A DNA stretch of 64,000 bases. Source: Candidatus Yanofskybacteria bacterium RIFCSPHIGHO2_01_FULL_44_24 (GTDB lineage Bacteria > Patescibacteriota > Minisyncoccia > 2-02-FULL-40-12 > GWA2-44-9). Shown piece by piece: positions 1,182 to 60,881 of the stretch. The notes beneath the pieces are model-generated. The model searched no databases and had not been told where the DNA came from. It saw nothing but the letters and a program-made list of their open reading frames with translations. The stretch spans positions 4,834 to 68,833 of the forward strand of contig MGJK01000012.1 of NCBI GenBank assembly GCA_001794215.1. Reading direction: 5' to 3'. The translations under genes and the position numbers were made by a program. Position 1 is the stretch's first letter, and each line of letters starts with the position of its first letter.

Positions 1182-1204
1182 ATATGGCATTATAATATAG
1201 AAAA

Positions 1205-2359
1205 ATGGCCGAAAAATCAATCACGATCTTCACTACCGCCTACAAGCCTTTTATAGGCGGATCCGAAATAGCAATTGAACAAATCAGCCGACGATTGCCG
1301 GATATTTTTTTCAATATCATAACTCCAAAACTTCGCGGTGATCTTAAGTGGGAGGAGGCCACAGGAAACGTGAAAATAAACAGGGTCGGGATTGGATGGC
1401 GACCGTTAGATAAGATGCTTTTTCCCGTTTTGGGGTTTCTACGGGCCGGCGGTTCGCCGTCTGTAGTTCATTCTTATCAGGCGTCATATGGAGGCGGAGC
1501 CGGGTGGGTTTTTAAAGTTTTCCATCCCAAATCTTTTTTTATTTTAACCCTGCAGGAGGGCAAGGATTTTGAAAAGCAGGGGTTTTTTATAAATTTTTTC
1601 AGAAATTTAATTATTAAAAAGGCCGACGCTATAACGGCGATCAGCAATTACTTGGCCGATTACGCCCGCAAGATAAATCCAAAGGCCAAGATCGCGGTCA
1701 TTCCCAATGGAGTGGACCTTGAAAAATTTAAAATTCAAAATGAAAAATTTAAAATTGAAGAACTCAAAAATAGACTAAAAATAGAAGACGGTGATAAGAT
1801 TGTCATTACCATTTCGAGGCTGGTGGAGAAAAATGGAGTGGGAGATCTGATAGAAGCGATCAGTAAGTGCAAAATCGCTAACCCAGAGCAAAGAATTAAG
1901 TTGATGATCATCGGGTCAGGATCGCTTGAGGAAAATTTAAAGATCAAAGTTCAAAAATCAAAATTACAAGACAGCGTTCTTTTCCTGGGGGATATTCCTT
2001 ACGATGAAATTCCTGCCTACTTAGCTATATCAGATGTTTTTGTGAGGCCCTCGTTTTCTGAGGGCTTAGGGAATGCATTTCTTGAGGCGATGGCGATGGG
2101 TGTTCCGATAATCGGTACGCCGGTCGGCGGTATACCCGATTTCCTTCAGGACGGAATTACAGGTCTTGCCTGTAAGGTCAGAAATCCGGACGATATAGCT
2201 AAGAAAATAAGCAGAATCTTGGCGGATGAAGGCCTGAGAAGATTGCTTGGAGAAAACGGAAGAAAACTTGTTCATGAAAGATACGATTGGGACTTCATTG
2301 CTCAAAAGTTTGGAGCAACATACAACCCTTTAATTCAAAATGAAAATATCAAAATGTAA
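1205..2359 (+). CDS. glycosyltransferase family 4
   Basis: N-term ITIFTTAYKPFIGGSE and C-term EGLGNAFLEAMAMGVPIIGTPVGGIPDFLQDGITG (E-x7-E motif). Contains an in-frame AT-rich tandem repeat coding EKFKIQNEKFKIEELKN. Confidence 0.85.
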   Translation: MAEKSITIFTTAYKPFIGGSEIAIEQISRRLPDIFFNIITPKLRGDLKWEEATGNVKINRVGIGWRPLDKMLFPVLGFLRAGGSPSVVHSYQASYGGGAGWVFKVFHPKSFFILTLQEGKDFEKQGFFINFFRNLIIKKADAITAISNYLADYARKINPKAKIAVIPNGVDLEKFKIQNEKFKIEELKNRLKIEDGDKIVITISRLVEKNGVGDLIEAISKCKIANPEQRIKLMIIGSGSLEENLKIKVQKSKLQDSVLFLGDIPYDEIPAYLAISDVFVRPSFSEGLGNAFLEAMAMGVPIIGTPVGGIPDFLQDGITGLACKVRNPDDIAKKISRILADEGLRRLLGENGRKLVHERYDWDFIAQKFGATYNPLIQNENIKM

Positions 2360-2438
2360 AATTCAGGTTACTCAACACTTCATTAGAAAAGTTTTGAGTT
2401 TCAATAATTTTTAACTTTGATTTTTAAATTTTAAATTT

Positions 2439-3593: not shown

Positions 3594-3614
3594 AAGACTA
3601 AAGACTATGGCTTT

Positions 3615-4826: not shown

Positions 4827-4951
4827 CCGGTTAAAGTTATGAACAGATAAGCCTTTCCCCCGTATCTCTAAAAGTAATATAATTAATGCAGTGTTTTTAA
4901 CTCTTAGATTCCCCTTTTAGGCACGGATAAAACGTGCTTAGCGGTGCTTCT

Positions 4952-6547
4952 ATGTTTTTTATGGATAAGGCAACAGACAGTAAAAAAACCAGTAAATGGT
5001 CCTTTTTGGGGGTATTATTTGCCGTCTTAGCGGCATTTTTATTTTTTTCCGGCAGTGCTTCAGCCGGAGGCAACGCCATTGATACGGCCGATTATATCTA
5101 TTTTCGCATTGATACCGAAATAAATGTTTTAAATGATAAATCGGTTCTTGTTAAATGGTCATGCGGTGGCGGAGCCACCAGCGGTAGCTTGAGTATTTAT
5201 CAAGGCTCGGTTACCGATGGTACTTCATCGGACAGCGATGGCTTGGTAAATGGTATTGTTCAGATTGCTTCTCAATCGTTGGAAAATGCTGGCGCTAACG
5301 GATCTGGCTGTGATGGAGGGGAATCAATAACGGCCAGCGTTTCTCTGGGCGGATGGGTCAGTAGAACATGGGCTTCTTCCATTACTGATACGGCAGGAGG
5401 CTTTATTAACAGGGCCAGTATGGATTATACGATCGTTGTTAATGGGATAGTCGAACAATTAGGGAATACCCTAACTCTTAATGGCACCACTGCTTCGGCT
5501 ACTTACAGCGGGACGGTTGCCTCTCAATCGTACAGCAATTACAGCGGTACCTATAAGAAATATATTGCAGGATCTACCGACGCAGGAACGGTTAAGGGTG
5601 GAGCCGATGGATATGTAAATAGGACTTCTTCGGCCTTAACTATATCAGCCACAGCCTCTCAATCAGTTGACTTTGGCGCCTCTACCGATAGCGACTTAGA
5701 TGAGAGTAGCTTGTTATTCGGCCACGTTGTTACGGTGAGCGGTTATACGAACGGTTCGGTAAGGGCGGGCGACAGCTTGAGTATCGTATGTTCCAACGGA
5801 GGAGCCGGTTCTTGGTATTGTCCCGTACCCTTAGCTCATACCGGAACTACGGCGGAATATAGTTACCCATCGGGAGGTATTACTTCCCTCACCGCTACCT
5901 ATACTGACAGAACCACAGGCGGTGATGCGCAGGTTGCATCTACTATTACACCACCAACTCCTTCCGGAGGAGGATCTTATTCAGAATCCGGAACAGTTCC
6001 GGCCACCCCAGCCACTCCGGCAGTTCCGGCAACGCCTGCGACAGAGGAAACTCCAGCTGTTCCCGCAACTCCGGCAATACCGGCGACTCCAGCGACGCCC
6101 GCTTCTCGAGGTTTTGTTAGCTTGGCCGCGCTTAATCTTAAAGAAGGCGATGTCGTCAGTGCCGCGGGATCAGATGATCCGGATGTTTATATCGTCAATG
6201 ACTGGGGTTACAAGAGATTATTCTTGAATCCTGCAATATTCGGATTCTACGGGCATCTCGGAGGATTTAATAGGGTTAAAAATACTTCTTCCACGGTTCG
6301 TGATACCATGGTAACTTCCGGCTTGTTCAGGAATTGCGAAACTAATGACGCAAAAGTTTATGGAGTCGAAGCGACGGGCGAAGACGCAGGGCTTCTTCAT
6401 TGGGTGAATGTTAGCGGCGATGAAGCCGTAGCCCAAGATTCAGAATTCTTCAAGAAAGTATTCTGTATAAACGGCAACGAATTTAATTGGTACTCGAAAG
6501 GGGCAGACTACAGCTCTGTCGGTCAGGTCCCGGCCTATTCCCGCTAA
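4952..6547 (+). CDS. secreted Ser/Thr/Gly-rich surface protein with Pro-Thr/Ala repeat linker (candidate glycoprotein)
   Basis: Sec-type signal: basic n-region DKATDSKKTSK, hydrophobic WSFLGVLFAVLAAFLFFSG, then SASA cleavage site. The long body is S/T/G/N-rich and low-complexity with at least 7 N-x-S/T sequons (NGS, NGT, NYS, NRT, NTS, NVS). It has a PATPAVPATPA repeat linker and a distinct C-terminal domain. The ORF finder used GTG at 4934; the ATG at 4952 is in frame. Confidence 0.6.
   Translation: MFFMDKATDSKKTSKWSFLGVLFAVLAAFLFFSGSASAGGNAIDTADYIYFRIDTEINVLNDKSVLVKWSCGGGATSGSLSIYQGSVTDGTSSDSDGLVNGIVQIASQSLENAGANGSGCDGGESITASVSLGGWVSRTWASSITDTAGGFINRASMDYTIVVNGIVEQLGNTLTLNGTTASATYSGTVASQSYSNYSGTYKKYIAGSTDAGTVKGGADGYVNRTSSALTISATASQSVDFGASTDSDLDESSLLFGHVVTVSGYTNGSVRAGDSLSIVCSNGGAGSWYCPVPLAHTGTTAEYSYPSGGITSLTATYTDRTTGGDAQVASTITPPTPSGGGSYSESGTVPATPATPAVPATPATEETPAVPATPAIPATPATPASRGFVSLAALNLKEGDVVSAAGSDDPDVYIVNDWGYKRLFLNPAIFGFYGHLGGFNRVKNTSSTVRDTMVTSGLFRNCETNDAKVYGVEATGEDAGLLHWVNVSGDEAVAQDSEFFKKVFCINGNEFNWYSKGADYSSVGQVPAYSR
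6000..6105 (+). repeat. in-frame tandem oligonucleotide repeat encoding (P-A-T-P-A-V/I) linker
   Basis: Repeated gcnactccngcn units coding TPATPAVPATPATEETPAVPATPAIPATPATPA. This also creates the spurious alternate-frame ORF 5922..6227. Confidence 0.7.
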
Positions 6548-6627: not shown

Positions 6628-8445
6628 ATGAGCAGGCTTCTTATTATTACCCAAAAAGTAGACATAAACGATGGCGTTTTAGGTTTTTTCCACGAGTGGA
6701 TCAGGAGGTTCGCCGAAAGATTTGATAAGGTCACGGTTATCTGCCTGAAAAAGGGCGAATACAATCTGCCGCCGAATGTTAAGGTCTTATCGCTGGGCAA
6801 GGAGACGTACGGCCATTATCCGGCAGTCGTCAGGCGGGCTTTGTTTTTTAAGAAATTTTATTCTTACATCCGACGGGAGAGAAATAATTACGACGCCGTA
6901 TTCGTACACATGAATCCTAAGTACGTTGTTCTCGGTGCTCCTTTGTGGAAAATTTGGGATAAAAAAATCAGCCTCTGGTATGCTCACGGCCATGTGGGCC
7001 CGACTCTTCAGTTGGCCGACAAGATGACCGATATTGCTTTTACCTCGACTCCGGAGGGCTATAGATTGAAAAGCGACAAGTTAGTCATAGTCGGACAGGG
7101 GATAGATACGGAAAAATTCAAAAATCAAAATTCAAAAATCAAAATTGATGATAGATTCAGGATTATATCCGTCGGGCGTATCACGGCCTCAAAGGATTAT
7201 GGAACGTTGATTCAGGCTTTATCCGTGCTTGGTAAGGATCTGAGAGATAAGCTGGAAGTTTCCATTGTCGGTGATACATGGACGGATAAAGACACTGCTT
7301 ATCTATCTGGATTGAAAGATAGGATAGCCGAGAAAGGATTAAGCGGAACGATAAAATTTTCTGGTCCGATTGCCAACAAAGATTTGCCGGGATTTCTTCA
7401 GTCAGCTGACCTATTCGTAAATATGGGATTGACCGGGAGTTTGGATAAGGCAATTTTGGAAGCGATGGCTTCGGGATTGCCGGTTTTGACCTGTAACGAG
7501 GCTTTGAAAAACGTTCTTGGTCTATATGCGGATAAGCTTATGTATCCGAAGGAGGATTCCGGCAAATTATCGGAAAAAATATCCTTGATGATGAAAATGG
7601 GTGGCCGCGAAAGAGCATCTTTGGGTGCCGGCCTGAGAGATATTGTCATAAGAGATCATAATATTGACGGTCTGATAGGCAAAATATCTAACTCAATCAA
7701 GGGCGTCCCTGCCAATCTAAATGTCGGTGACATTTACAACCGGCAGATAAAGGGTAAATTTGAAGGGAACTATGAGTATCATCGCTGGAAGAGCTCACCG
7801 GTCAAAAGGGCGGGGTATGAAATGACCCGGAGTTTGATTCGGGGTAATATATTGAAAAGCGGTTTGGGTTTCAGGGATTACCTTGAAGTGGGTCCCGGTC
7901 CGGGGACGTGGACGAAGATGTTTTTGGAGGCGAGTCCGAAAGCAAATTTTGATTTAGTGGATATATCCTCCGAAATGCTCAACTTAGCTAAGCAGAATCT
8001 TGCCGGTCATGGCAATTTAAGGTACATAGAGACCGATTTTCTGCGCTTCAATCCCGATAAGAAGTACGACATATTCTTTTCTTCCCGGGCAATTGAGTAT
8101 ATGCCGGATAAGGATGGTTTAGTAAAGAAAATATCCGATCTTTTGAGGCCGGGAGGCAGGGGATTCGTCATCACTAAAAATCCTAAATATTTACGGAGCA
8201 AATTGGCCGGCAGACATATCTCGGAATTTCATAAGGGCCAGATCTCTCCCGAAACATTCAGGGCCTTATTGATTGGAAATGGTTTCAAGGATGTCGAAAT
8301 TTATCCGGTTACTTTTGTTTTTCCCGTTTTCAACTCCGCCTTCATGAACAGGACGGTATCAGGGATCTTTTCTTACCAGAAATTGAATACGTTAAATAAT
8401 TTTTTTGCAGAATCCTATTTAATTAGGTTCAAGAAACCTAATTAA
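6628..8445 (+). CDS. fusion protein: GT4-like glycosyltransferase (N) + class I SAM-dependent methyltransferase (C)
   Basis: N-half has GT-B features (GLTGSLDKAILEAMASGLPVLTCNE). C-half has methyltransferase motif I LEVGPGPGTWTKMF and motif post-I LRPGGRGFVIT. The ORF finder used TTG at 6592; the ATG (MSRLLIITQ) is at 6628. Confidence 0.8.
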   Translation: MSRLLIITQKVDINDGVLGFFHEWIRRFAERFDKVTVICLKKGEYNLPPNVKVLSLGKETYGHYPAVVRRALFFKKFYSYIRRERNNYDAVFVHMNPKYVVLGAPLWKIWDKKISLWYAHGHVGPTLQLADKMTDIAFTSTPEGYRLKSDKLVIVGQGIDTEKFKNQNSKIKIDDRFRIISVGRITASKDYGTLIQALSVLGKDLRDKLEVSIVGDTWTDKDTAYLSGLKDRIAEKGLSGTIKFSGPIANKDLPGFLQSADLFVNMGLTGSLDKAILEAMASGLPVLTCNEALKNVLGLYADKLMYPKEDSGKLSEKISLMMKMGGRERASLGAGLRDIVIRDHNIDGLIGKISNSIKGVPANLNVGDIYNRQIKGKFEGNYEYHRWKSSPVKRAGYEMTRSLIRGNILKSGLGFRDYLEVGPGPGTWTKMFLEASPKANFDLVDISSEMLNLAKQNLAGHGNLRYIETDFLRFNPDKKYDIFFSSRAIEYMPDKDGLVKKISDLLRPGGRGFVITKNPKYLRSKLAGRHISEFHKGQISPETFRALLIGNGFKDVEIYPVTFVFPVFNSAFMNRTVSGIFSYQKLNTLNNFFAESYLIRFKKPN

Positions 8446-8484
8446 ATTTTTACTTTTTAATTTAGAATTTTTACTTGATTCATA

Positions 8485-8883
8485 ATGGCCAATTTTAAAA
8501 ACAACTACGATTTAGAAGAGAGGGTTGCCAGATTTGGCGAGGAAATAATTCTTTTTTGCCGAAGAGTCAAAAAAGATCCGATAGTCTTGCCCCTCTTGGT
8601 TCAGTTAATAAAATCAGCTACCAGTATCGGCGCTAACTACATGGAGGCCAATGGAGCCAGCTCGAGAAAGGATTTTGCCAATAAGATCTACATAGCCAAA
8701 AAGGAAGCCCAGGAAACCAAATACTGGCTGCGTATGCTCTCGGTTTATTATCCAAATGAATTAGAAAAACTTCAGAAATACCGGCAAGAAAGTCACGAGT
8801 TCACTTTGATATTTCACAAAATTGTCCGTACCATTAAAGATAAAGATTCCAAGGAACCGGATGCAATAAAAATTTTAAAGTAA
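8485..8883 (+). CDS. four-helix-bundle protein (23S rRNA intervening-sequence protein / Avd-like family)
   Basis: 132 aa. The YDLEER...IGANY.EA.......F......IA..E..ET..WL pattern is typical of the PF05635/TIGR02436 family. A paralog lies at 46558. Confidence 0.75.
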   Translation: MANFKNNYDLEERVARFGEEIILFCRRVKKDPIVLPLLVQLIKSATSIGANYMEANGASSRKDFANKIYIAKKEAQETKYWLRMLSVYYPNELEKLQKYRQESHEFTLIFHKIVRTIKDKDSKEPDAIKILK

Positions 8884-8898
8884 AAATTAAAAATTCTT

Positions 8899-9468
8899 AT
8901 GGTAATCGAACTATTCGGTCTGCCGGGGGCGGGCAAAACAACTTTTGCTAAACAGTTAGAAGCTGACGGCTTTACCGTGGTTAAGATAAGGACCAAGAAA
9001 GAGCTTCTTTATTTTAATTTTGTCCATTTAGTCCGTCATCCGATCAGTTCGCTGATGAACGCCATCTTCATTTTAAAAAATTCACCTAATCCCGGACTGC
9101 GCTATTATAAATTCATGAATTTTTTCTTAGATATGAATGCCCGCTACGAAAAAGCTCGATTGTACGGCAAGGCAGTTTTGGATCAGGGATATTTTCAGAA
9201 TGTCTTATCGGTATTTGAGAATCCGATGAGTGCCGAGATTATGAAGAGGTATATAAAGCATCTTCCTAAGCCGGACAAGCTGATCGTTTTAGACATCTTA
9301 GCCGAGGAGAGTTTAAAAAGAGCGGGGGAAAGGGGATATTACTCGCGCGAAAGATTTGGTGATGAATATGTCGAGAATTGGAGAAAAGTAGTTTTGCAGA
9401 ATTATGATTTGTTCAAGAAAGTCGTAGGGGATTTGGGGGTAGAATATGAAATCGTGAGTAATAATTGA
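8899..9468 (+). CDS. P-loop nucleoside/nucleotide kinase-like protein (dNK/dTMP-kinase-like fold)
   Basis: Walker A LFGLPGAGKTTFAKQL at the N-terminus. Downstream PKPDKLIVLDILAEESLKRAGERGYYSRE resembles the PD-hhhLD...R..RGR..E lid of the deoxynucleoside kinase family. Confidence 0.55.
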   Translation: MVIELFGLPGAGKTTFAKQLEADGFTVVKIRTKKELLYFNFVHLVRHPISSLMNAIFILKNSPNPGLRYYKFMNFFLDMNARYEKARLYGKAVLDQGYFQNVLSVFENPMSAEIMKRYIKHLPKPDKLIVLDILAEESLKRAGERGYYSRERFGDEYVENWRKVVLQNYDLFKKVVGDLGVEYEIVSNN

Positions 9469-9602
9469 AAATTCAAAAATAAAAATGCAAAATTATCGAA
9501 GCTCATTTAGCAACAAAATGAGCAATCCAAATTTTAAACTTTTTAATCAATTTTCAATGATAATAATTCTAAAATTTAAAATTCTAAATTAAAAATTTTG
9601 TA
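9469..9602 (+). repeat. AT-rich intergenic element with central hairpin (family copy D)
   Basis: gaaaattcaaaaataaaaatgcaaaattatcg + hairpin gctcattt agcaacaa aatgagc + T-rich arm ...aattttaaactttttaat... ending at the ATG of the next gene. Same architecture as the copies at 37157 and 38225. Confidence 0.6.
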
Positions 9603-11885: not shown

Positions 11886-11919
11886 TTGATTTTCTATTAA
11901 TTTTTTTTATACTTTCTAT

Positions 11920-12621
11920 ATGTTTGTACGCAAAAATAACTGCCGTATTTGCGGAAGCTCTGATCTTGTGAGCGTACTCAATTTAGGCGATCAGCCACCG
12001 GCGAATGCTTTTCTAAAAAGAGAAGACTTTAAAAGCGAAAAGGCATATCCTCTTAATGTTTACTTTTGTAGCGGATGTAATCTTTTGCAACTAAGAGACA
12101 TAGTTTCCCCGGATATTTTATTTCGGGATTATGTTTATGTTTCTTCAACTTCACGCAGTTTTGTTGAGCATTTTGAATCTTATGCGGCGGATGTAGCTAA
12201 AGACTTTGATGTAAAAAACAAATTAGTTATCGATCTGGGAAGTAATGACGGTGTATTATTGAAGCCCTTTAAATCCTTAGGCGCCAAAGTTCTTGGGATT
12301 GATCCGGCAATCGAAATTGCCCGAAAAGCAACCCAAGAGGGAATTGAGACTTTGCCGGAATTTTTTACACCCGACCTCGCTAAAGACATAGTTGCTAAGA
12401 GGGGTAATGCCAAAATAATAAGCGCGAACAATGTCTTCGCTCACATAGACGACGTTAAGGCTGTCTTAGAGGGAGCTGATATCTTATTATCCGGTGACGG
12501 GGTCTTTGTCGCTGAGTTTCCTTACTTAGTCGACTTTATTAATAAAGGCCTGTTTGATACGGTTTACCACGAACACCTTTCTTATTATGGAGTCAGGCAG
12601 TATTTTCCAATCCCTAAATGA
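11920..12621 (+). pseudogene. NDP-sugar C-methyltransferase, N-terminal fragment (disrupted by IS insertion)
   Basis: Zn-ribbon N-term CRICGSSD...CSGCNLLQL and methyltransferase core (VIDLGSNDGVLL). Colinear with the intact 420-aa paralog at 34476 up to ...YHEHLSYY. The stop codon lies inside the IS terminal inverted repeat. Confidence 0.8.
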
Positions 12622-19035: not shown

Positions 19036-19049
19036 CTGAATACAATTAC

Positions 19050-19177
19050 TCTAATTTCTAATTGATCTAATTATTCTAATCAATTCCCAATTTTTTAAAT
19101 GTCTAAATCCTAAGGTTTTCGTTATTACGATTTATTTAGGTCAATTAGGTTAATTAGTATAATTAGGTTAATTTTTT
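19050..19177 (+). repeat. short direct repeats in intergenic leader (ctaatt x5; aattaggttaatt x2)
   Basis: ctaatttctaattgatctaattattctaatcaatt and tcaattaggttaattagtataattaggttaatt directly upstream of the 19182 ATG. Confidence 0.5.
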
Positions 19178-19181
19178 ACCC

Positions 19182-34034: not shown

Positions 34035-34059
34035 AACAGGATTTGTCTGAAAGCGATAA

Positions 34060-34410
34060 ACAGAAGTAATGAGGGCGCGGCATAAAGTCACTCCGCCTTG
34101 GCTTATTCGAGGCACGCCAATAAATTCCGCTCGCCCCTTATCTATCTTCAGCACGCCTCCGTCCCGCCAGCGACGGGACTCAGCTATGTTCGCCCCGCCC
34201 CTTCAGAACCATGCAAGGGGCGGGGTCTCAAATGCTTCAGATAGACAAGGGGCTTCGCCTTAGTTTTTCGTAAATCCCTTCAATAGGTTAAAGCCTCGCT
34301 TAAGGTTTTAAATAGAAGCCTGCGCAAATCTCCCAATATGCCGGCCGGGGCTTCGCTTAAAGTTGGTTTTGTAAATTCCTTATAGGGTTAACTAATCTAC
34401 CCTCGGTAGC
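34060..34410. other. GC-rich, hairpin-dense intergenic region (possible structured RNA / foreign leader) upstream of intact C-methyltransferase
   Basis: Unusually G+C-rich for this genome. Strong hairpins gccccgcccctt-cagaaccatgc-aaggggcggggt (34192-34227) and gtcccg-ccagcga-cgggac (34161-34179). ggggcttcgc repeats twice. No protein-like ORF; the 64-aa ORF 34069..34263 is low-complexity. Confidence 0.4.
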
Positions 34411-34475
34411 TATCGTTGATTTAATTAATTATTTCCTGTAACATCACAATGAATAAATCGGGAGGAGCTTAAACC

Positions 34476-35785: not shown

Positions 35786-36003
35786 TCGGGTAGTGAATGT
35801 TTGAGATGCAATTTTCTAAAGAAAATTGCCACGGCAAAGCCACTCAAACATCTACTACCTGACGATTTGAAAAAGCATGTATTTAGGGTATATTAACCAT
35901 AGGATCAAATCCGAATAGCGAAACAAGAAATTCGAAACAAACAATAAGCCCGAAGCTTTTAGAGGGTGGCCGGTGGGCGTGCGGGGTATTCAAATGTTTG
36001 GAG

Positions 36004-36038
36004 TTTCGATCTTCGATATTGTTTCGTATTTCGAAATT
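36004..36038 (+). promoter_or_regulatory. conserved T-rich half of palindromic leader motif (TTCGAYATTGTTTCG-KW-TTTCGAWATT), ~20 nt upstream of start codon
   Basis: tttcgatcttcgatattgtttcgtatttcgaaatt. Near-identical copies lie at 46924 and 54547, each ~20 nt from a start codon and each paired with an upstream A-rich complement (cgaaacaa). Confidence 0.55.
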
Positions 36039-36058
36039 CTAATTTCTAATTTAAGTAG

Positions 36059-37156: not shown

Positions 37157-37270
37157 TTCTAATGAAAAATTCAAAAATCAAAGTGTAAAATTATTGTAAC
37201 CCGTAAAACCCCTTGATTTTTACGGGTATCCTGAATTTTTAATTTTGATATTTACATTTTAAATTTTGGT
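37157..37270 (+). repeat. AT-rich intergenic hairpin element (family copy A)
   Basis: ctaatgaaaaattcaaaaatcaaagtgtaaaattattgtaa + hairpin acccgtaaaa-cccctt-ga-ttttacgggt + T-rich arm gaatttttaattttgatatttacattttaaatttt, ending at an ATG. Confidence 0.7.
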
Positions 37271-38224
37271 ATGAAGAAGATAGCATTTGTTGTCGGAGTT
37301 TTTCCAGCCGTGTCTGAAACCTGGATGATCAATCAAGTCGCCGGTGCTTTAGATCGGGGTTTTGACGTGGATATTTATTCTTTTGAACGTCAGGACGAAA
37401 AGAATGTGTCCGATGTTTATCGTAAATATAAAATGTCTGAGCGGACGAGGTATATAGGGATGCCCGAGAACAAAATCGTAAGAATCGCTTTGGCTCTGCC
37501 GAAAATTATCAGACTTTTGTTAGTTTCTCCGGGAACTTTATTCAAAAGTTTGAATGTCGGGGAATACGGCCGGAATGCCCTATCTCTGAAATTTCTTTTC
37601 TGGTCTGAAGCTTTTGCCGGCAAAAAATACGATCTTATCCATCTCCATGACGGAGTTATAGCCGCTCGGTTTTTGACCATAAGAGATATAGCCGGAATCA
37701 AGGGTAAACTGCTGACCTCCTTCTATGGACAGGACGTGAGCCGGAGGGTAAAAGAAAATCCTCATATTTACGACAGGCTCAAGAAGACTGATTCGGAGTT
37801 TATCGTCATGTCGGATTATATGAGAAAACGCGTAGTAGATATGGGGTTTGACGAAAAAAGAGTTCACACCGTGTCGATATTCGGGATTGATGTTGACGCG
37901 CATCCGTTTAAGGAGAGGACAATTTCTCCCGGCGAGACATTCGAAATTGCGGCGATGGGCCGGTTTGTGGAGAAAAAGGGATTTGACGACATTCTAAGGG
38001 CCTTAGCCATCGTAAAGCAGAAGGCGAATAGGAAGTTTCATTTCAGTTTTATCGGAGGCGGAGAACTTGATCAAAAGCTTAGAAAAATGACCACAGACCT
38101 CGATTTGGATGATGTCGTCTCTTATAAAGGATACATGAAGATAGAAGATGCAATGAAATATTTAATGGGTATGCATCTGTACCTTCAGCCGTCAAAGATG
38201 GCGTCTGACGGAGACCAGGAATAA
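37271..38224 (+). pseudogene. GT4 glycosyltransferase, N-terminal 317-aa fragment (gene split by repeat element)
   Basis: GT4-like through ...LYLQPSKMASDGDQE, then a TAA exactly where the E-G-x-P...LEAMA motif should continue. The element copy at 38225 follows. Confidence 0.65.
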
Positions 38225-38338
38225 CCTAATGAAAAATTTAAAAATCAAAATGTAAAATTATTGTAACTCGCGAAATTAACCGACTTTTGCGAGTATCCTT
38301 AATTTTTAACTTTGATCTTTACATTTTAAACTTTTTAG
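38225..38338 (+). repeat. AT-rich intergenic hairpin element (family copy B) inserted inside a GT4 gene
   Basis: cctaatgaaaaatttaaaaatcaaaatgtaaaattattgtaa + hairpin actcgcgaaa...ttttgcgagt + T-rich arm. Collinear with copy A. The hairpin has compensatory substitutions (cccgtaaaa/ttttacggg versus ctcgcgaaa/ttttgcgag). Confidence 0.7.
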
Positions 38339-38617
38339 ATGACCACTTCTGTCCTACAAGCCCTTGCTACCGGTCTTCCATGCATCACCACTAATCACGG
38401 TGCCTTTAACGAGCAGATAGTTGATGGCAAAAACGGTTTTATGGTTCCGGAAGGAGATTATATGGCATTAGCCGAGAAGGTACTGTATTGCATGGATCAT
38501 CCGGAGCTATGGCCCGGTTTTGGTCGTTTTGGCAGACAACAGGTTCGGGATCGCTTTGATCTAAATTCTCTAATGGATAGGCAAGTTCAAATTTATAATA
38601 ACCTTTTAAGTAAATAA
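38339..38617 (+). pseudogene. GT4 glycosyltransferase, C-terminal 92-aa fragment with its own ATG
   Basis: MTTSVLQALATGLPCITTNHGAFNEQIVDGKNGFMVPEGD is the remainder of the GT4 E-x7-E region. Joined to the 317-aa upstream piece it gives a normal-length (~409 aa) GT4. Confidence 0.65.
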
Positions 38618-44504: not shown

Positions 44505-44788
44505 ATCCCGTTAGAGCCAAAATGTACTACCATGTCTATGTATTACAAAGCACAAAGGATAGGCACTGGTATACAGGCTTTACGGTGGATTTACGGAAGC
44601 GCTTGAAAGAACACAATGAAGGAAAGTATGAGTCGTGGACAAAAGGCAGAGGACCATTTGAATTAATATATTATGAAGCGTCTAAAAACAAACAAGATGC
44701 TAAAAATAGAGAAAAATATCTTAAAACTGGCATGGGCAAGCGCTACCTCAAAAACAGGCTTAAGCGCTTCCTGGCTCTAACGGGATGA
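44501..44788 (+). CDS. GIY-YIG nuclease-domain protein (YhbQ/UPF0213-like)
   Basis: YYHVYVLQS...WYTGFTVDLRKRLKEHNEG is the GIY-YIG core in a ~95-aa protein. Overlaps both neighbours by 4 nt (ATGA). Confidence 0.65.
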   Translation: MNPVRAKMYYHVYVLQSTKDRHWYTGFTVDLRKRLKEHNEGKYESWTKGRGPFELIYYEASKNKQDAKNREKYLKTGMGKRYLKNRLKRFLALTG

Positions 44789-46497
44789 ATCCAAATCTTT
44801 CTAAAATCTGCGTACGGCCGGATGACAGCATCAAGGCGGTGCTGGATAAATTAGTTTTGCATAAGCCAGCCCAAACCAAGCTTCCCGGGGGGATTGTCTT
44901 GATTACCGAAAAGGATGGTAAGTTAGTCGGTATTGCTACTGATGGCGACATTCGAAGAGGACTTGCTGGAGGAGCAAAAATGGAAGATCGGATTTCCGCT
45001 CTGATGAACGGTAAGCCCTTTGTCGTTCAGGGTCCGACAACGAGCGAAGCGATACTCTCATTGGCTTCGGAGAAAATAAGAAAAGAAGGGCTCCATCGCG
45101 ACCGCTTAAGCAAAATTATCATCGTCGATAAAGATAAAAAGGTTTTAGATTTAGTCTCTTTTTATGATTTATGGAGGAAAAGCGATGTAAGGTTCAGGCA
45201 GATCGGAGTTGTCGGTTTGGGATATGTGGGCTTGACGCTCGGTGTTACCTTGGCCGATTTAGGGTTCAAGGTCATTGGTTTTGATATTGCTCCCGCGGTT
45301 AGGAAATCTTTGCAGAGAGGCAAGCCTCACTTCTACGAAAACGGCCTGGAAAGAATGCTTAAAGACAACTTAAGCAAGAATTTAAGGATTGCAAGTAATT
45401 TCAAAGGAGCCAATAATTGCGATGTATATTTTGTTTCTGTCGGCACTCCCTTAGACGGTAATAAAAAACCGAACCTCAAATATTTGCGTAATGCCTCAGA
45501 AAGGATCGGGAAGGTGCTGAAGGAGGGAGATTGCGTGATTTTACGCTCGACTGTTCCGGTCGGCGCGACCAGAAATTTTGTAGTGCCGATTTTAGAGAAA
45601 CTTTCCGGACTTAAGGCCGGTGACGGGTTTTTCGTCTCATTTGCCCCTGAAAGAACCATAGAGGGCAAGGCTCTTGAGGAATTGAGAAACCTTCCTCAGG
45701 TAGTTGGAGGAATTAATCGCGTAAGCGCCGATTTGACGGCGACCCTTTTCGGCCATATGACCCATTCGACGGTCTTGGTGGACTCTCTGGAAGAGGCAGA
45801 GACGGTTAAGCTTATCAACAATACTTATCGAGATGTTACCTTCTCCTTTGCCAACGAACTGTCCCTGATTTGCCATCGTTTGGGCATCGATACTCACCGG
45901 GTGATCGAGGCTGCTAATCGTGGATATGCAAGAAGCAATGTCCCTTTGCCTGGGCCAGGAGTCGGAGGAGCGTGCCTTGAAAAGGATCCATTTATTTTTA
46001 TCGAAAGCGCCAAAACCAAAGACTACGATCCGTTGCTGGTAAGGCACGCCCGATCGGTAAGCGACTTGATGCTCGATTTTATTACCCGGGAGATCAAAAG
46101 GTTCTTGGCCGGAAAACCAAATCTGCGCAACCCCAAGGTATTTATGATGGGCTTTGCGTTCAAGGGTCAGCCTGTTACCTCCGATATCAGGGGTTCGTAT
46201 TCGGTTAAGCTCGCAGATCAACTGAAGAAGAATATTCCGAATATCCATGTTTATGATCCTGCGGTTAGGCGGGAAGATATTCTGAATCATGGGCTCAGGT
46301 ATGCCGGCGACCTTAAAACAGGATTTACCGGAGCGGACGTGGTCGTGGTTATGAATAACAATCCGGCGTTTGGAGAAATAGACATAAGAAGCGCTCTCCA
46401 GTTGACTAATAAGCCGGCATTTCTATTTGATACTTGGGGAATATATAATAGAGAAGACGTGGCCAAAGTCAAAGGAGTGGAGTATAAGAGGTTGTAA
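44785..46497 (+). CDS. CBS-pair domain fused to UDP-glucose/GDP-mannose-dehydrogenase-family nucleotide-sugar dehydrogenase
   Basis: N-terminal ~150 aa with CBS-like repeats (LVGIATDGDIRRGL). Then the NAD-binding IGVVGLGYVGLTLGVTLADLGFKVIGFD and the UDPG/MGDP dehydrogenase central and C-terminal regions. Confidence 0.7.
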   Translation: MNPNLSKICVRPDDSIKAVLDKLVLHKPAQTKLPGGIVLITEKDGKLVGIATDGDIRRGLAGGAKMEDRISALMNGKPFVVQGPTTSEAILSLASEKIRKEGLHRDRLSKIIIVDKDKKVLDLVSFYDLWRKSDVRFRQIGVVGLGYVGLTLGVTLADLGFKVIGFDIAPAVRKSLQRGKPHFYENGLERMLKDNLSKNLRIASNFKGANNCDVYFVSVGTPLDGNKKPNLKYLRNASERIGKVLKEGDCVILRSTVPVGATRNFVVPILEKLSGLKAGDGFFVSFAPERTIEGKALEELRNLPQVVGGINRVSADLTATLFGHMTHSTVLVDSLEEAETVKLINNTYRDVTFSFANELSLICHRLGIDTHRVIEAANRGYARSNVPLPGPGVGGACLEKDPFIFIESAKTKDYDPLLVRHARSVSDLMLDFITREIKRFLAGKPNLRNPKVFMMGFAFKGQPVTSDIRGSYSVKLADQLKKNIPNIHVYDPAVRREDILNHGLRYAGDLKTGFTGADVVVVMNNNPAFGEIDIRSALQLTNKPAFLFDTWGIYNREDVAKVKGVEYKRL

Positions 46498-46557
46498 AAA
46501 AACTCGAATAACGAAATTCGAAACTCGAAACAAAACCAGAAAATTAGAAATAAAATC

Positions 46558-46908
46558 ATGAACGAAGCTAAAAAACCTTATGATTTGGAAGAGCGGTCTT
46601 TACTGTTTGCTAAACGAGTTAACGGTTATGTGCGTAAATTGCCGAAGGATACTCCTAATTTTGAAAACGGAAAGCAATTGGTCCGTTCTGGTGGTTCAAT
46701 CGGAGCTAATTATATCGAAGCTAACGAGGCTATGAGTAAGAAAGATTTTAGAATGAGAATCAAGATATCTAAGAAAGAGGCCAAGGAAACTGTCTTCTGG
46801 TTAAAGTTGACTCAACCGACTTCAGAACAAATAAACGAAAAAGACGATTTAGTAAAAGAAGCTGGCGAGTTGATGAATATTTTAGGCGCTATCTTGGTTA
46901 AATCTTAG
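46558..46908 (+). CDS. four-helix-bundle protein (23S rRNA IVS protein / Avd-like family)
   Basis: YDLEERSLLFAKRV...SIGANYIEANEAMSKKDF...KEAKETVFWLKL. Paralog of 8485. Flanked by the inverted A-rich/T-rich arms at 46498-46540 and 46924-46958. Confidence 0.75.
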   Translation: MNEAKKPYDLEERSLLFAKRVNGYVRKLPKDTPNFENGKQLVRSGGSIGANYIEANEAMSKKDFRMRIKISKKEAKETVFWLKLTQPTSEQINEKDDLVKEAGELMNILGAILVKS

Positions 46909-46923
46909 TTTAGGAATTTATAA

Positions 46924-46958
46924 TTTCGATATTCGACATTGTTTCGGATTTCGATATT
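46924..46958 (+). promoter_or_regulatory. conserved T-rich palindromic leader motif copy
   Basis: tttcgatattcgacattgtttcggatttcgatatt, 21 nt upstream of the TTG start at 46980. Its complement-like A-rich arm aaactcgaataacgaaattcgaaactcgaaacaa lies at 46498-46535 on the other side of the four-helix-bundle gene. Confidence 0.55.
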
Positions 46959-46979
46959 AGGATTTCGAATTTACATAAA

Positions 46980-47702: not shown

Positions 47703-47784
47703 TTTTTTACTTTTTAATTTTCAATTTTATAATCAATTTTTAAAATTAAAAATTCTAAAATTAAAAATTTAACTTCTTTATAGC

Positions 47785-53221: not shown

Positions 53222-53320
53222 AATTTTTAATTTAGAATTTTTAATTTTCAAAATTGGCCGTTAAAAACCGATTATAAAATTCCTGCCTGCCGGTAGGCAG
53301 GTTAAAGTAAAAAGTAAAAA

Positions 53321-54475
53321 TTGATATCAAGCATGAATGGTTTTAATATTAAAACCCCTTATAGTAGTAGGAGGATAGGCGATAACGCCCCTACTTTTGT
53401 TATAGCCGAAATAGGTAAGAATTTTATCCAGACCAAAAAGGAGAAATCGGTTAAAGAATATCTGAGGAACGCCAAAGAACTGGTAATTTTAGCCAAAAAA
53501 TCCGGAGCTGATGCGGTTAAATTCCAAACCCATAATGTCGAGGATGAACAGCTCAATTTAAAAATAAGAGCCCCGCACTTTAAGGGCGATAGGTACGAAT
53601 GGGTTTCGAGGAATACCAAGGCTACACCGGTTAAAGAGTTTTGGATTCCGCTCAAAGAATTCTGCGATAAGGAAGGAATCACATTTTTCTCTACGCCCTG
53701 CAGTTTAGGAGCCGCAAAGATATTGTCCTCCCTGGATGTGGCTCTGTGGAAAGTCGCCTCTTGGGATATTTTGGATTTTGTTATGCTCGACCATATCAGA
53801 AAAAGCGGCAAACCGGTTATTATTTCCGGCGGAGCCAGTACGGCCGAAGAGATAGACAGATCAATCTCTTATATCCAGGAGAAAAACAAAAATCTTGCCT
53901 TGCTTCATTGTGTTTCCAAGTATCCCTGTCCACCCGAAGAGTTGAATTTGGGTACGATCGGTTTTTTTAAGAAAAGATACGATGTCCCCATAGGTTTTTC
54001 CGATCATTCTTTAGGCATCGAGTCTACCCTGGCCGCCGTTGCCCTGGGAGCTAAGGTGATAGAAAAACATTTCTCCCTGTCCCGAAGCTTATGGGGGGCC
54101 GATCATAGATTTTCCATGACTTCGGCATCGTTTGGTAAAATGGTTACAGAGATAAGGAAAATAGAGGCTAATCCCGGTGCGGCTCAGAAATATTTAAATC
54201 ATGAGAAAGTAAAGCCGAGCCTGAATTTTTCCGGCAAGGTTATCAGAGACGAAGAGAAAAGCATGAAGGCCGTATTTGCCAAGGCTCTTTTTGCCGGACG
54301 GGATATTCCGGCCGGACAAGTTATAAAATCTGATATGTTATACTCAATGAGACCCGGATTGGCGGTCGGAGGACTTCAGCCACTCCACTTCCATATGGTA
54401 GTCGGTCAAAAATCAGCAAAAGATTTGAAGAAGTTCGAACCGATAACGTTAGAAGTTGTAAAATCCGAAATCTGA
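53321..54475 (+). CDS. N-acetylneuraminate-synthase family enzyme (NeuB/PseI/LegI-like) with C-terminal SAF domain
   Basis: FVIAEIGKN...GADAVKFQTH...IGFSDHSLG is the NeuB TIM-barrel region. C-terminal antifreeze-like domain (ARDIPAGQVIKSDMLYSMRPGLAVGG). Confidence 0.8.
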   Translation: MISSMNGFNIKTPYSSRRIGDNAPTFVIAEIGKNFIQTKKEKSVKEYLRNAKELVILAKKSGADAVKFQTHNVEDEQLNLKIRAPHFKGDRYEWVSRNTKATPVKEFWIPLKEFCDKEGITFFSTPCSLGAAKILSSLDVALWKVASWDILDFVMLDHIRKSGKPVIISGGASTAEEIDRSISYIQEKNKNLALLHCVSKYPCPPEELNLGTIGFFKKRYDVPIGFSDHSLGIESTLAAVALGAKVIEKHFSLSRSLWGADHRFSMTSASFGKMVTEIRKIEANPGAAQKYLNHEKVKPSLNFSGKVIRDEEKSMKAVFAKALFAGRDIPAGQVIKSDMLYSMRPGLAVGGLQPLHFHMVVGQKSAKDLKKFEPITLEVVKSEI

Positions 54476-54546
54476 AATCCGAAATTCTAAACAAAGCCCG
54501 AAAATCAGAAATCCTAAATCTGAGATGGTTTGATAGTTTTCTTTAG

Positions 54547-54595
54547 TTTCAATATTCGATATTGTTTCGTTTTTCAACATTCGATATTCGAATTT
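54547..54595 (+). promoter_or_regulatory. conserved T-rich palindromic leader motif copy
   Basis: tttcaatattcgatattgtttcgtttttcaacattcgatattcgaattt, ~14 nt upstream of the ATG at 54609. The A-rich counterpart (aaatccgaaatctgaaatccgaaattctaaacaaagcccgaaaatcagaaatcc, 54458-54520) overlaps the upstream gene's stop. Confidence 0.55.
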
Positions 54596-54608
54596 AAATT
54601 TCTTAGGC

Positions 54609-55922
54609 ATGAAGATCCTCATAAGTATCCCAAGTCCCGAATATTACAGGAACTATATTACTTCGCCGGCGCTTTCGGAAATAATCGAAAGCTGTTATTT
54701 TATTGTGCCCAAGAAAATGGCGGATAAGGATTTCGGAGTGCCTAAATCGAGGGTTGCGGTCTATGATTATCCTGCCGACAAAGAAGTTCTGCACAAACAT
54801 TTATTTCATATCAATACAGGAAAGTTTGAATCTCGAAGCACTTCCCTGAAGTTCAGATTTATGAGACTAAGCAAAAGGAGCCAGGTTCTCTATCGTATTC
54901 TTGGATTGCCGGTTATTTATGAACTGACGCGATTTTTCATCCTCTCCCGAGCGGACGATAGACGGTTATTCTCTGTAATTAAAAGCATTCAGCCGGATGT
55001 AATTTTAATGCCTTCAAGCGGGTACGAGGGGATTACTTTTGAAATTATAAAGACAGCCAAGAAGCAGGGGGTACCGACTTTGATGCTGGTAGATAACTGG
55101 GATAATTTAGTGAGCAAGACCATTTTTACCTATAAGCCTGATTTTCTTTCGGTCTGGGGACCGCAGGCGGTTAAAGATGCCGTTGAAATTCATGGAATAC
55201 CCAAAGAAAGGATCTTTCCGATCGGAACGCCGAGGTTTTTCAATTATTTCAAGAACAGATCAGAGTATCCGTCACCTTACCCCTTTAAGTATGCACTTTT
55301 TGCCGGAAATTCAACGGGTTTTGATGAGCTGTCTGCGCTTAAAAAACTCGAAGAATATATCGAGAAAAATAATTTAGATCTCAAGATCGTTTATCGGCCC
55401 CACCCAATGAGGCAGAAAAGGAAATGTCCGGATAATTTTGTTGAGAGCGAATTCAAACATGTTGTACTGGATCTCCAGGCCAAGGAATATTATAACCGGG
55501 AAAAATCCAAAACCCCTTCTGATCTTCCTGATCTGGATTATTATCCCCGGGCCTTGGCTAATATGGAGTTTATGATCTGTCCGTTATCAACCATGTTGAT
55601 TGAGTGTCTTCTTTTTGATAAGCCAGTTTTTGTTTTGGCTTATGATGACGGGATACATTTCGTAAATCCTAAGAACTTGTATAAATATTGCCGACACTTT
55701 GAGGGGATCGAATATCTTAGAAATCTCGAAATCATTCACGAGTTCGAAGATCTAACCAGGGTGTTTACGGTTGATTTTTCCAAGAAAAGAATGGAGAAAG
55801 AAATTCCTTTGAGTTATTATCTTTCAGAAAAAACACGGCACTATCCGCACCATGTGAAATTACTGGTTGAGGATATCAATGCAAAATTCAAAAATAACCT
55901 GCGGGTCGGCCCGCAGGAATGA
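54609..55922 (+). CDS. putative GT-B glycosyltransferase with HP motif (sialyltransferase / KpsC-KpsS Kdo-transferase-like)
   Basis: 437 aa. Rossmann-like N-domain (VILMPSSGYEGITFEIIKTAKKQGVPTLMLVDNWDN) and a C-domain with YRPHP (His-Pro motif as in CMP-sugar-dependent sialyl/Kdo transferases). Confidence 0.4.
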   Translation: MKILISIPSPEYYRNYITSPALSEIIESCYFIVPKKMADKDFGVPKSRVAVYDYPADKEVLHKHLFHINTGKFESRSTSLKFRFMRLSKRSQVLYRILGLPVIYELTRFFILSRADDRRLFSVIKSIQPDVILMPSSGYEGITFEIIKTAKKQGVPTLMLVDNWDNLVSKTIFTYKPDFLSVWGPQAVKDAVEIHGIPKERIFPIGTPRFFNYFKNRSEYPSPYPFKYALFAGNSTGFDELSALKKLEEYIEKNNLDLKIVYRPHPMRQKRKCPDNFVESEFKHVVLDLQAKEYYNREKSKTPSDLPDLDYYPRALANMEFMICPLSTMLIECLLFDKPVFVLAYDDGIHFVNPKNLYKYCRHFEGIEYLRNLEIIHEFEDLTRVFTVDFSKKRMEKEIPLSYYLSEKTRHYPHHVKLLVEDINAKFKNNLRVGPQE

Positions 55923-56009
55923 AAAATTATCGTAACCCGCAAAACATAGTTAGCTTTGCGAGTGTCATTAATTTTTAACTTTCATCTCTACGCTTTAATT
56001 TTCCGTACT
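55923..56009 (+). repeat. AT-rich intergenic hairpin element (family copy C, lacking left arm)
   Basis: gaaaaattatcgtaa + hairpin cccgcaaaa-catagttagc-tttgcgag + aatttttaactttcatctctacgctttaatttt, ending at ATG 56010. Confidence 0.55.
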
Positions 56010-60586: not shown

Positions 60587-60591
60587 ATATC

Positions 60592-60609
60592 CACGGCCTA
60601 ACGGCCGTG
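60592..60609 (+). terminator. hairpin (terminator-like) at start of GC-rich intergenic region
   Basis: cacggcc taa cggccgtg is a perfect 7-bp stem, 6 nt after the stop. No U-tract. Confidence 0.4.
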
Positions 60610-60881
60610 ATACCCCATGTCTTCGATTTATTCTCGGGATTTGCTTTGGAAAAGAAATTCGGGGTCTATATAATTGCTTCCTCCGCCAACTGGGCGGATC
60701 CGGGTCTGACTTCATCCTCGTGCTAACGCCCGAGGTTTTCGTCGGATCAATTATAAAAAGATGAACCTATGGCGCCCCATAGGGAGCGTACTTCATATTT
60801 TTTTACCATCTATGGCGTCCTATGTCAATATAGCCATAAGCTTAAATATATTGTACATTAGTTTAGTTAATTTAACTCACG

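Follow-up and report, generated by a model that had tools for sequence, protein, structure and literature searches.

Palindromic elements resembling rRNA intervening sequences occupy gene junctions in a glycan-synthesis cluster of Candidatus Yanofskybacteria

The 64,000 nt of DNA analyzed here (the window; positions 4,834 to 68,833 of the forward strand of contig MGJK01000012.1, assembly GCA_001794215.1) come from Candidatus Yanofskybacteria bacterium RIFCSPHIGHO2_01_FULL_44_24 and represent a glycan-synthesis gene cluster in a genome of the Parcubacteria group of the Candidate Phyla Radiation (CPR). Five imperfect palindromes of about 105-115 nt, termed family A, were found in the window, each with an A-rich arm (A-arm), a GC hairpin and a T-rich arm (T-arm). 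None of the five carries an open reading frame (ORF). Copies c1 to c4 precede glycosyltransferase ORFs, and c5 precedes a gene without a Pfam match. The initial annotation of the window had placed members of the family at 37157-37270, 38225-38338, 55923-56009 and 9469-9602, where all four were present. The family is real and larger than first described: it consists of CPR-wide palindromes with heptad arms, similar to the intervening sequences (IVSs) of rRNA genes, and in the window these lie at junctions of the glycan cluster.

Copy c1 (37157..37270; this and all features below are on the forward strand unless marked otherwise) occupies the entire spacer between a DegT gene and the gene for the N-terminal part of a glycosyltransferase, and scored 120.5 bits with the covariance model described below. 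Its A-arm spans 37159-37198, the two strands of the hairpin stem 37199-37208 and 37218-37227, and the 29-nt core of its T-arm (the 29-mer) 37234-37262; a TAAATT box at 37260-37265 is followed by the ATG at 37271. Copy c2 (38225..38338) occupies the spacer separating the two halves of a split GT4 glycosyltransferase gene, with the A-arm at 38226-38265, stems at 38266-38275 and 38285-38294, the T-arm at 38301-38329, a TAAACT box at 38327-38332 and the ATG at 38339. Copy c3 (2331..2438; 97.8 bits) has stems at 2370-2375 and 2394-2399 and a T-arm at 2406-2434 in front of the ATG at 2439. It had been taken for a version with a right arm only; it is a full element, the A-arm of which overlaps the final codons and the stop of the GT4 ORF 1205-2359. 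Copy c4 (9462..9602) is composite, with an A-arm, a hairpin at 9501-9508 and 9516-9523, a T-arm reaching to about 9564 and, from there to the ATG at 9603, an extra run of A-rich heptads. Copy c5 (55876..56009) has stems at 55935-55943 and 55955-55963, a T-arm at 55970-55998 and the ATG at 56010. It had likewise been described as a right half, but its left arm is present at 55876-55934, within the end of ORF 54609-55922, and is broken by a nested GC hairpin. This nested hairpin (55898-55917) is perfect, reads CCTGCGGG TCGG CCCGCAGG, and lies in the last codons of that ORF.

A repeat search aligned 37159-37267 with 38226-38334 at 83% identity and grouped the inner 81 nt of three copies (37182-37262, 38249-38329 and 55918-55998) at 78-80% identity. 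A degenerate pattern of the T-arm 29-mer matched four times in the window, compared to 0.00 matches expected from 100 shuffles. The covariance model was trained on c1, c2, c3 and c5, leaving out c4. It recovered the untrained copy c4 (match 9462-9564, E 6.6e-6); the window gave no other convincing match, and the E-values of the window copies spanned 1e-6 to 1e-24. The family is thus non-random, as had been proposed. Chance similarity of AT-rich intergenic DNA would fit the low complexity of the sequence and the weak A-rich heptad matches that also occur within ORFs, but given the shuffles, the E-values of the model and the concentration of 113 exact-pattern loci in one bacterial group, its probability is negligible.

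In each copy the A-arm and the T-arm constitute an inverted repeat, with 73% complementarity over 48 nt, and the whole element therefore forms one long imperfect hairpin with a GC-containing tip. A reading of the right arm as a simple complement of the left was dropped, because it is the reverse complement. RNA folds of the copies paired the arm ends in the minimum free energy structure, with z-scores of -1.8 to -4.9. The termini are CTAA(A)TG...(A)TTTAG, and copies within rRNA genes define them as CTAAATG...ATTTAG.

The central hairpin of c1 (ACCCGTAAAA/TTTTACGGGT) has 10 pairs and that of c2 (ACTCGCGAAA/TTTTGCGAGT) nine Watson-Crick pairs and one G-T pair. The hairpin of c4 is GCTCATTT/AAATGAGC, and that of c5 contains one C-A mismatch. 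In the four-copy alignment a double change with pairing retained was found for 5 of the 11 central-helix pairs (the whole structure has 24 pairs), and 96.7% of all cells were paired, which was equalled by 0-1 of 500 shuffles. The earlier statement that the hairpins differ in sequence yet stay paired was borne out by these numbers. At about 65 sites elsewhere, all nine central-hairpin pairs vary on both sides around constant arm sequences, in an alignment fitted to the model. Any GC hairpin appears acceptable at the central position. Free variation of this sort would be expected of a terminator, or of a stem with a structural role in an insertion element, and not of a specific ligand- or protein-binding RNA; the covariation is real, but by itself it does not show the selection on a regulatory 5' untranslated region (5'-UTR) that had been read from it. 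Rfam covariance models gave no match at the gathering score over the whole window.

Searches of genome and metagenome collections with the 29-mer pattern gave 113 loci, nearly all of them in CPR. Contigs representing one genome per species held 32 of them, where about 0.5 would be expected by chance by our own rough estimate, and the remaining 81 came from JGI metagenomes. The labelled genomes with matches were nearly all CPR of many lineages, with a few labelled otherwise. The covariance model made from the window copies alone found about 65 distinct full-length sites in these loci, the ones in which the central pairs vary as described above. The pattern had no match in viral contigs, and phage-borne spread is unsupported. 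TIGR arrays were also considered and rejected, since the elements occur singly and not as arrays. We found no description of these elements in CPR in the searchable literature.

Genomic contexts were counted for 86 non-redundant pattern matches. Of these, 49 were located 2-18 nt before a start codon. Most of the genes concerned encode ribosomal proteins within the S10, spc and alpha operons, and fusA, secY, mreB, ftsA and nusA are among the others preceded by a T-arm. Six matches lay 9-10 nt before a tRNA gene, nine within 16S or 23S rRNA genes in apical loops of helices, and six inside lepA, where they are read through in frame. The remaining 16 lay in other contexts, with about eight abutting the 3' end of a gene on the opposite strand as judged by reading the downstream sequences; by the same reading the T-arm faces a start codon about six times more often than a gene end (49 vs. 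about 8).

These contexts bear on the proposal of the initial annotation that all carriers are glycosyltransferase genes, co-regulated or phase-varied by a cis-acting hairpin in the 5'-UTR. Four of the five family A copies in the window do precede glycosyltransferase ORFs. However, the window is a glycan gene cluster, and the association stems from sampling; even here c5 precedes a gene without a Pfam match, and copies of family A or of its sister families precede genes for DegT, a CMP-sugar synthetase, a dehydrogenase and NeuB as well as genes of unknown function. Elsewhere the element or its T-arm is found before genes for ribosomal proteins, other translation genes, cell-division genes and tRNAs, or within rRNA genes and lepA. 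The hairpin sequence is not conserved, no Rfam family was matched, and neither a simple-sequence tract nor an invertible-segment feature was seen in the copies read, which were judged by eye without a dedicated tool. We regard regulation of this kind as very improbable.

The window itself has no rRNA, and c1 to c5 are intergenic and do not lie within rRNA helices. In other CPR genomes full elements were found in such helices. At locus L036, 165 nt of inserted sequence take the place of the apical loop of 16S helix 6; a 170-nt insert lies in the apical loop of the 23S helix immediately before the CGUACCUUUUGUAUAA segment at L047, and a 175-nt insert lies in a 23S domain-I helix at L108. The helix at L047 is presumably helix 25 (H25) as known from Escherichia coli 23S rRNA, a classical IVS site. 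Two of these loci also have a second IVS-like copy, which lies within the 23S gene at L047 (11569-11694) and, at L108 (9227-9353), some 3.8 kb downstream of its 23S gene (843-5390). Several inserts can be present together in CPR 23S genes, and at L077 two group I introns (1448-1713 and 1748-2190) lie next to IVS-like copies.

In lepA the whole element is in frame and always located in the loop before YxLNLIDTPGH. An element occupies this site in six loci (L020, L030, L064, L089, L099 and L106), and L125 and P0124 have an empty site; related LepA proteins have either no element or peptides derived from family B (see below) in the same loop. No ORF other than lepA was hit by the element, and one lepA loop was hit repeatedly. 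The empty lepA site already resembles the T-arm, which suggests homology-guided copying into arm-like sequence; we take this as a lead only. The notion that the element gives rise to split lepA genes was rejected, as the candidates are largely frameshift-ridden or truncated assemblies instead. The long-read contig of L125 has many genes broken by frameshifts (ftsZ, dnaE and lepA), so that assembly errors probably account for many of the short LepA proteins in databases.

Yanofskybacteria and other CPR share the gene order methyltransferase, methyltransferase, DegT, N-part and C-part of the glycosyltransferase. In the window a 114-nt element lies at each of the last two junctions. The c1 site is empty in L039 and L040, where the DegT gene overlaps the start of the glycosyltransferase gene, and the c2 site is empty in the same two loci (a spacer of 10 nt in L039 and an overlap, TAATG, in L040) and in L043 (3 nt). 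Since c1 and c2 are missing from these orthologous CPR loci, they represent insertions at gene junctions. The copies multiply within a genome, and they lie at sites that tolerate an autonomous hairpin: the gaps between stop and start codons for c1 to c5, apical loops of 16S and 23S rRNA, tRNA spacers and one surface loop of LepA.

The glycosyltransferase gene around c2 is a split GT4 gene (WcaL-like) with ORFs of 317 aa (37271-38224) and 92 aa (38339-38617), and the break lies exactly at the EX7E motif. Variants in other CPR include a circularly permuted fusion with the C part before the N part (409 aa), and the contiguous form is rare (P0075). That c2 caused the split was considered and rejected, because the break at EX7E is of old date and many CPR have it without the element. 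The in-frame length of 117 nt at c2 is a coincidence: five in-frame stops are present, and no copy in the window is read through. Translational bypassing or an intron at c2 is unsupported.

The arms are built of 7-nt repeats. A lag of 7 was the best lag in 12 of the 14 arms tested, with an autocorrelation of 0.57 compared to 0.26-0.45 at other lags. A-rich heptad runs resembling the A-arm were also seen inside glycosyltransferase ORFs at 1710-1756, 1919-1965, 4395-4441 and 7100-7146. They encode Lys-rich linkers (EKFKNQNSKIKI) resembling the peptides inserted in LepA, and are either remnants of elements or just AT-rich coding sequence.

Heptad arms of other sequence define sister families in the window. 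A family B copy (35905..36058) has an A-arm of AAATCCG-type heptads, a GC-rich centre and a T-arm of TTTCGAT type ending TAATTT-N6-ATG at the DegT gene 36059 (folding energy -38.3, z -1.9). Family B arms also occur at 46498-46557 and 46909-46979, where they flank the 116-aa ORF 46558-46908 encoding a PF05635 protein (23S rRNA IVS protein, S23p; E 5e-14). The segment 46498..46979 thereby has an architecture of the IVS type, with the position of the hairpin taken by an ORF. The duplex of its arms was calculated at -26.7 kcal/mol, compared to -11.7 +/- 3.6 for shuffled arms, the best single shuffle reaching -27.5. A third family B copy (54459..54608), before gene 54609, belongs to the family by sequence only, as its fold is weak (z -0.14) and its structure unsupported. 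In 8440..8900 the arms are in reverse order, with the T-arm at 8440-8484 and the A-arm at 8859-8900, and they bracket a second PF05635 ORF (8485-8883, E 1.5e-14) that is 46% identical to the other S23p of the window; here the arm duplex was -20.7 compared to -7.2 +/- 2.4, and none of 300 shuffles reached it. A third PF05635 ORF bracketed by complementary heptad arms was found at locus L106. Family C is represented by a palindrome with CTAATT-type arms (19036..19181) that occupies the spacer before gene 19182 (folding energy -26.3, z -3.15). A palindrome without a hairpin (47703..47784), its T-rich arm first and its A-rich arm second, precedes gene 47785 with a weak fold (z -1.8). A tentative relative in the same reverse order (53222..53320; z -1.2) has T-rich heptads, two small GC hairpins and A-rich heptads and precedes neuB at 53321.

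Taken together, repeated copies, IVS-type architecture, rRNA locations and empty orthologous sites make it very probable that family A is a repeated insertion element of the IVS type. Several observations weigh against mobility. Six assemblies of the population were identical across c1 and c2, the sole family A copies spanned, with no presence/absence polymorphism (the assemblies with a contig identical to that of the window include GCA_001795655.1). Neither target-site duplications nor direct repeats were found at c1 or c2 on comparison with the empty sites in L039, L040 and L043, or at the rRNA and lepA copies. Arms of this kind enclose no transposase gene in the window, and inspection of roughly 0.7 Mb of loci, short of a systematic search, revealed none either. 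We infer mobility from copy number and from orthologous sites that are empty at about 64% protein identity.

The last two observations also count against a classical miniature inverted-repeat transposable element (MITE), that is, an insertion sequence shortened by deletion and mobilized in trans by the transposase of its parent, which recognizes the terminal inverted repeats. Such an element would account for the inverted repeats at the termini defined by the rRNA copies, for the small size, high AT content and presence of several copies per genome (five in 64 kb), and for insertions at gene junctions in a glycan cluster. Some MITEs have been reported at gene junctions and in glycan clusters. 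Besides the lack of duplications and of a transposase, however, the only cargo found between the arms was PF05635, one arm is far better conserved than the other, and the same lepA loop was hit repeatedly with no other ORF hit. A classical MITE is therefore improbable.

The T-arm was much better conserved than the A-arm. Ascertainment by an exact pattern inflates this conservation, so that only flanking positions provide independent evidence; conservation does reach past the search pattern, with TTT after the T-arm and A.TCC before it. The gap between the 29-mer and the ATG had a mode of 9 nt and was 7-10 nt in 31 of 49 cases, and the gap to the 5' end of a tRNA was 9-10 nt in six of six cases, four of which are one orthologous site (tRNA-Cys/tRNA-Leu), leaving three independent ones. 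A TAAAYT box is placed at -12 to -7 relative to the A of the ATG or to tRNA nucleotide 1, which is the geometry of a -10 element; the box starts at -11 for c1, at -12 for c2 and at -12 for gene 36059. The genes led by a T-arm have no Shine-Dalgarno (SD) sequence, and the same genome has textbook leaderless promoters, for example TTGATT-N16-TATACT-N6-ATG at 11886-11922. From the position of the box we slightly favour a role of the T-arm as a -10-type promoter giving leaderless RNAs. SD sequences were sparse among the window genes in general, and a good -10 box is present 7-10 nt upstream of the ATG in several of them (also the starts 1205, 12637 on the reverse strand, and 33270), which suggests that leaderless or near-leaderless mRNAs may be widespread in this organism.

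Other findings speak against the promoter. No -35 hexamer was found at a proper distance from the T-arm box, and a consensus promoter scan made no call in the T-arm; it gave instead a 9/12 match in the A-arm, ATGAAA-N18-TAAAAT. Otherwise the genome uses canonical TTGACA-N17-TATAAT promoters. As the genome is compact, an element filling a short spacer abuts the ATG anyway, and a promoter can serve no purpose in the copies within rRNA genes and lepA. The TTGAT of the T-arm was tried as a -35 hexamer and a promoter of the Bacteroidetes type (TTTG...TAnnTTTG) was also tried; the spacing was wrong for the former and wrong in most copies for the latter. A short motif, (A)GCGAAGCGA(T/A), was found repeatedly, either after the T-arm and ahead of the start codon or within the second small hairpin of the rRNA copies; it was seen at L010, L011, L013, L031, L036, L061 and L095 and accounts for a secondary peak of the gap at 16 nt.

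The constant distance of the T-arm to the ATG and to tRNA position +1 could also be explained by a cassette of terminator and promoter that evolved in the host and is not mobile. The hairpin with its U-rich arm would then terminate transcription of the upstream gene, the T-arm would be a standard strong CPR promoter, the A-arm would be merely the A-tract of a bidirectional terminator, and the similarity between copies would result from convergence on one consensus. In L023, L007 and L024 nearly all genes of the ribosomal-protein operons are preceded by a T-arm-only version, the hairpin sequence varies as freely as in terminators, and low SD use and leaderless-type promoters are features of this genome. 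However, c1, c2 and c5 share homologous hairpins and loop flanks, being 78-84% identical across the whole element, and are therefore duplicates and not convergent. Full elements are also found in 16S helix 6, in 23S helices and in the lepA frame, where neither function makes sense, and relatives carry S23p ORFs as IVSs do. The GC hairpin is not a canonical intrinsic terminator: the T-run begins only 7-8 nt after the GC stem, and a terminator scan made no call at c1 or c2, although the extended A:U stem might compensate for the displaced T-run. We consider a cassette of this kind unlikely. It had been named together with a MITE as a candidate by the initial annotation, and both came close to the reading that the evidence favours.

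In bacteria, IVSs are located in apical loops of rRNA, are excised by RNase III in all studied cases and are of unknown origin; in the Coxiella IVS the stems are inverted repeats, the site cut by RNase III has heptameric repeats, and an S23p ORF is present (PMC4990558). CPR have retained RNase III, encoded by rnc (PMC12641178). The elements described here have several features in common with the IVSs of Salmonella, Leptospira, Coxiella, Campylobacter and others, some of which have an S23p ORF. Both are AT-rich inserts of 100-500 nt with inverted-repeat ends and a long stem. They replace apical rRNA loops (homologous copies were found in 16S helix 6, a 23S H25-type helix and a domain-I helix), have tandem heptameric repeats in the stem and an optional central PF05635 ORF, and share a sporadic distribution and an unknown mode of spread. 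In contrast to IVSs, the window copies and most others lie outside rRNA, between protein genes, before tRNAs and in lepA. One arm of the CPR element is conserved as a 33-mer across many lineages at a fixed distance to the downstream start, and excision by RNase III, established for IVSs, is a prediction for the CPR elements. Being outside rRNA, the window copies are filed as IVS-like and not as IVSs in the strict sense, which limits the assignment.

The elements also resemble other small repeats in some respects. Rickettsia palindromic elements (RPEs) are about 100-150 nt long and occur in intergenic regions, in RNA genes and in frame within proteins, where the peptide lies on the protein surface. 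They are likewise palindromic repeats of a reduced genome, and the lepA copies behave like in-frame RPEs. The host group differs, the in-frame CPR copies are confined to one loop of one gene and do not occur in many genes, and heptad-repeat arms and S23p cargo belong to the CPR elements and not to RPEs. The Correia elements of Neisseria (CREE) have promoter-like end boxes, are co-transcribed, form hairpins cut by RNase III and can terminate transcription. They too are small palindromic repeats next to genes, and the same set of functions may apply to the CPR elements. However, CREE are confined to one genus, end in inverted repeats of 26 bp, duplicate a TA target and contain an IHF site, whereas no duplication was seen for the CPR elements, which span many lineages. 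Leaderless promoters, known for mRNAs of Actinobacteria and Deinococcus and for tRNAs of Nanoarchaeum, share with the T-arm a TAnnnT box at -12 to -7, the absence of an SD sequence and a constant distance to the tRNA. The putative CPR promoter differs in that it is part of a repeated palindrome, is conserved over the whole 33 nt and has no -35 element.

Based on this comparison, we consider it fairly probable that family A consists of ORF-less members of palindromic insertion elements that occur throughout CPR and are of the same kind as rRNA IVSs. In a transcript, pairing of the arms would give a stem of roughly 45 bp that encloses the GC hairpin. If RNase III cuts this stem, as it does in every IVS studied, cleavage at a gene junction would part two cistrons; by analogy with IVSs, the chances that the RNA stem is an RNase III substrate may be taken as about even. 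The conserved arm next to the start would supply a -10-type promoter, replacing the displaced translational coupling or SD signal. A broader and rather doubtful extension is that the elements could be the free-living form of rRNA IVSs, a selfish cassette with a processing or termination stem and a complete leaderless promoter that spreads across CPR lineages and, having settled at almost all junctions of ribosomal-protein operons, in tRNA clusters and in rRNA helices, would have rewired CPR expression into monocistronic leaderless units and fragmented rRNAs, with the PF05635 (S23p, Avd-like) cargo as part of the copying machinery.

The nature of IVSs, their spread and the function of S23p have been open questions since about 1990. 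A family with members in rRNA helices and at ordinary junctions, with and without an S23p ORF, provides comparative material on these questions, and some of the unusual rRNA insertions of CPR could be explained by it. Such elements also explain extra peptides in LepA and fill junctions of genes or of gene halves; c2 is an example, located at the ancient split of the GT4 gene. If the promoter reading is true, highly expressed CPR genes without an SD sequence would start via leaderless mRNAs, and tRNAs would be transcribed leaderless as well. In genome annotation, true CPR start codons are strongly marked by the 33-nt arm.

A few further features of the window were observed. Two intergenic regions, 34035-34475 (441 nt) and 60587-60881 (295 nt), are unusually long and GC-richer, with internal repeats and hairpins and no Rfam match. 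A small ORF of the GIY-YIG type at 44505-44784 is bounded by a 12-nt inverted repeat (CCCGTTAGAGCC/GGCTCTAACGGG) and adds a second type of selfish junction insert; the junction between the glycosyltransferase halves holds a GIY-YIG gene in Falkowbacteria (L041/L042, 3977-4261). Relative to the window, assembly GCA_000994085.1 (L004) lacks 116 nt (45211-45326) in the UDP-glucose dehydrogenase gene, called at 531 aa vs. 570 aa, which represents either strain variation or an assembly difference.

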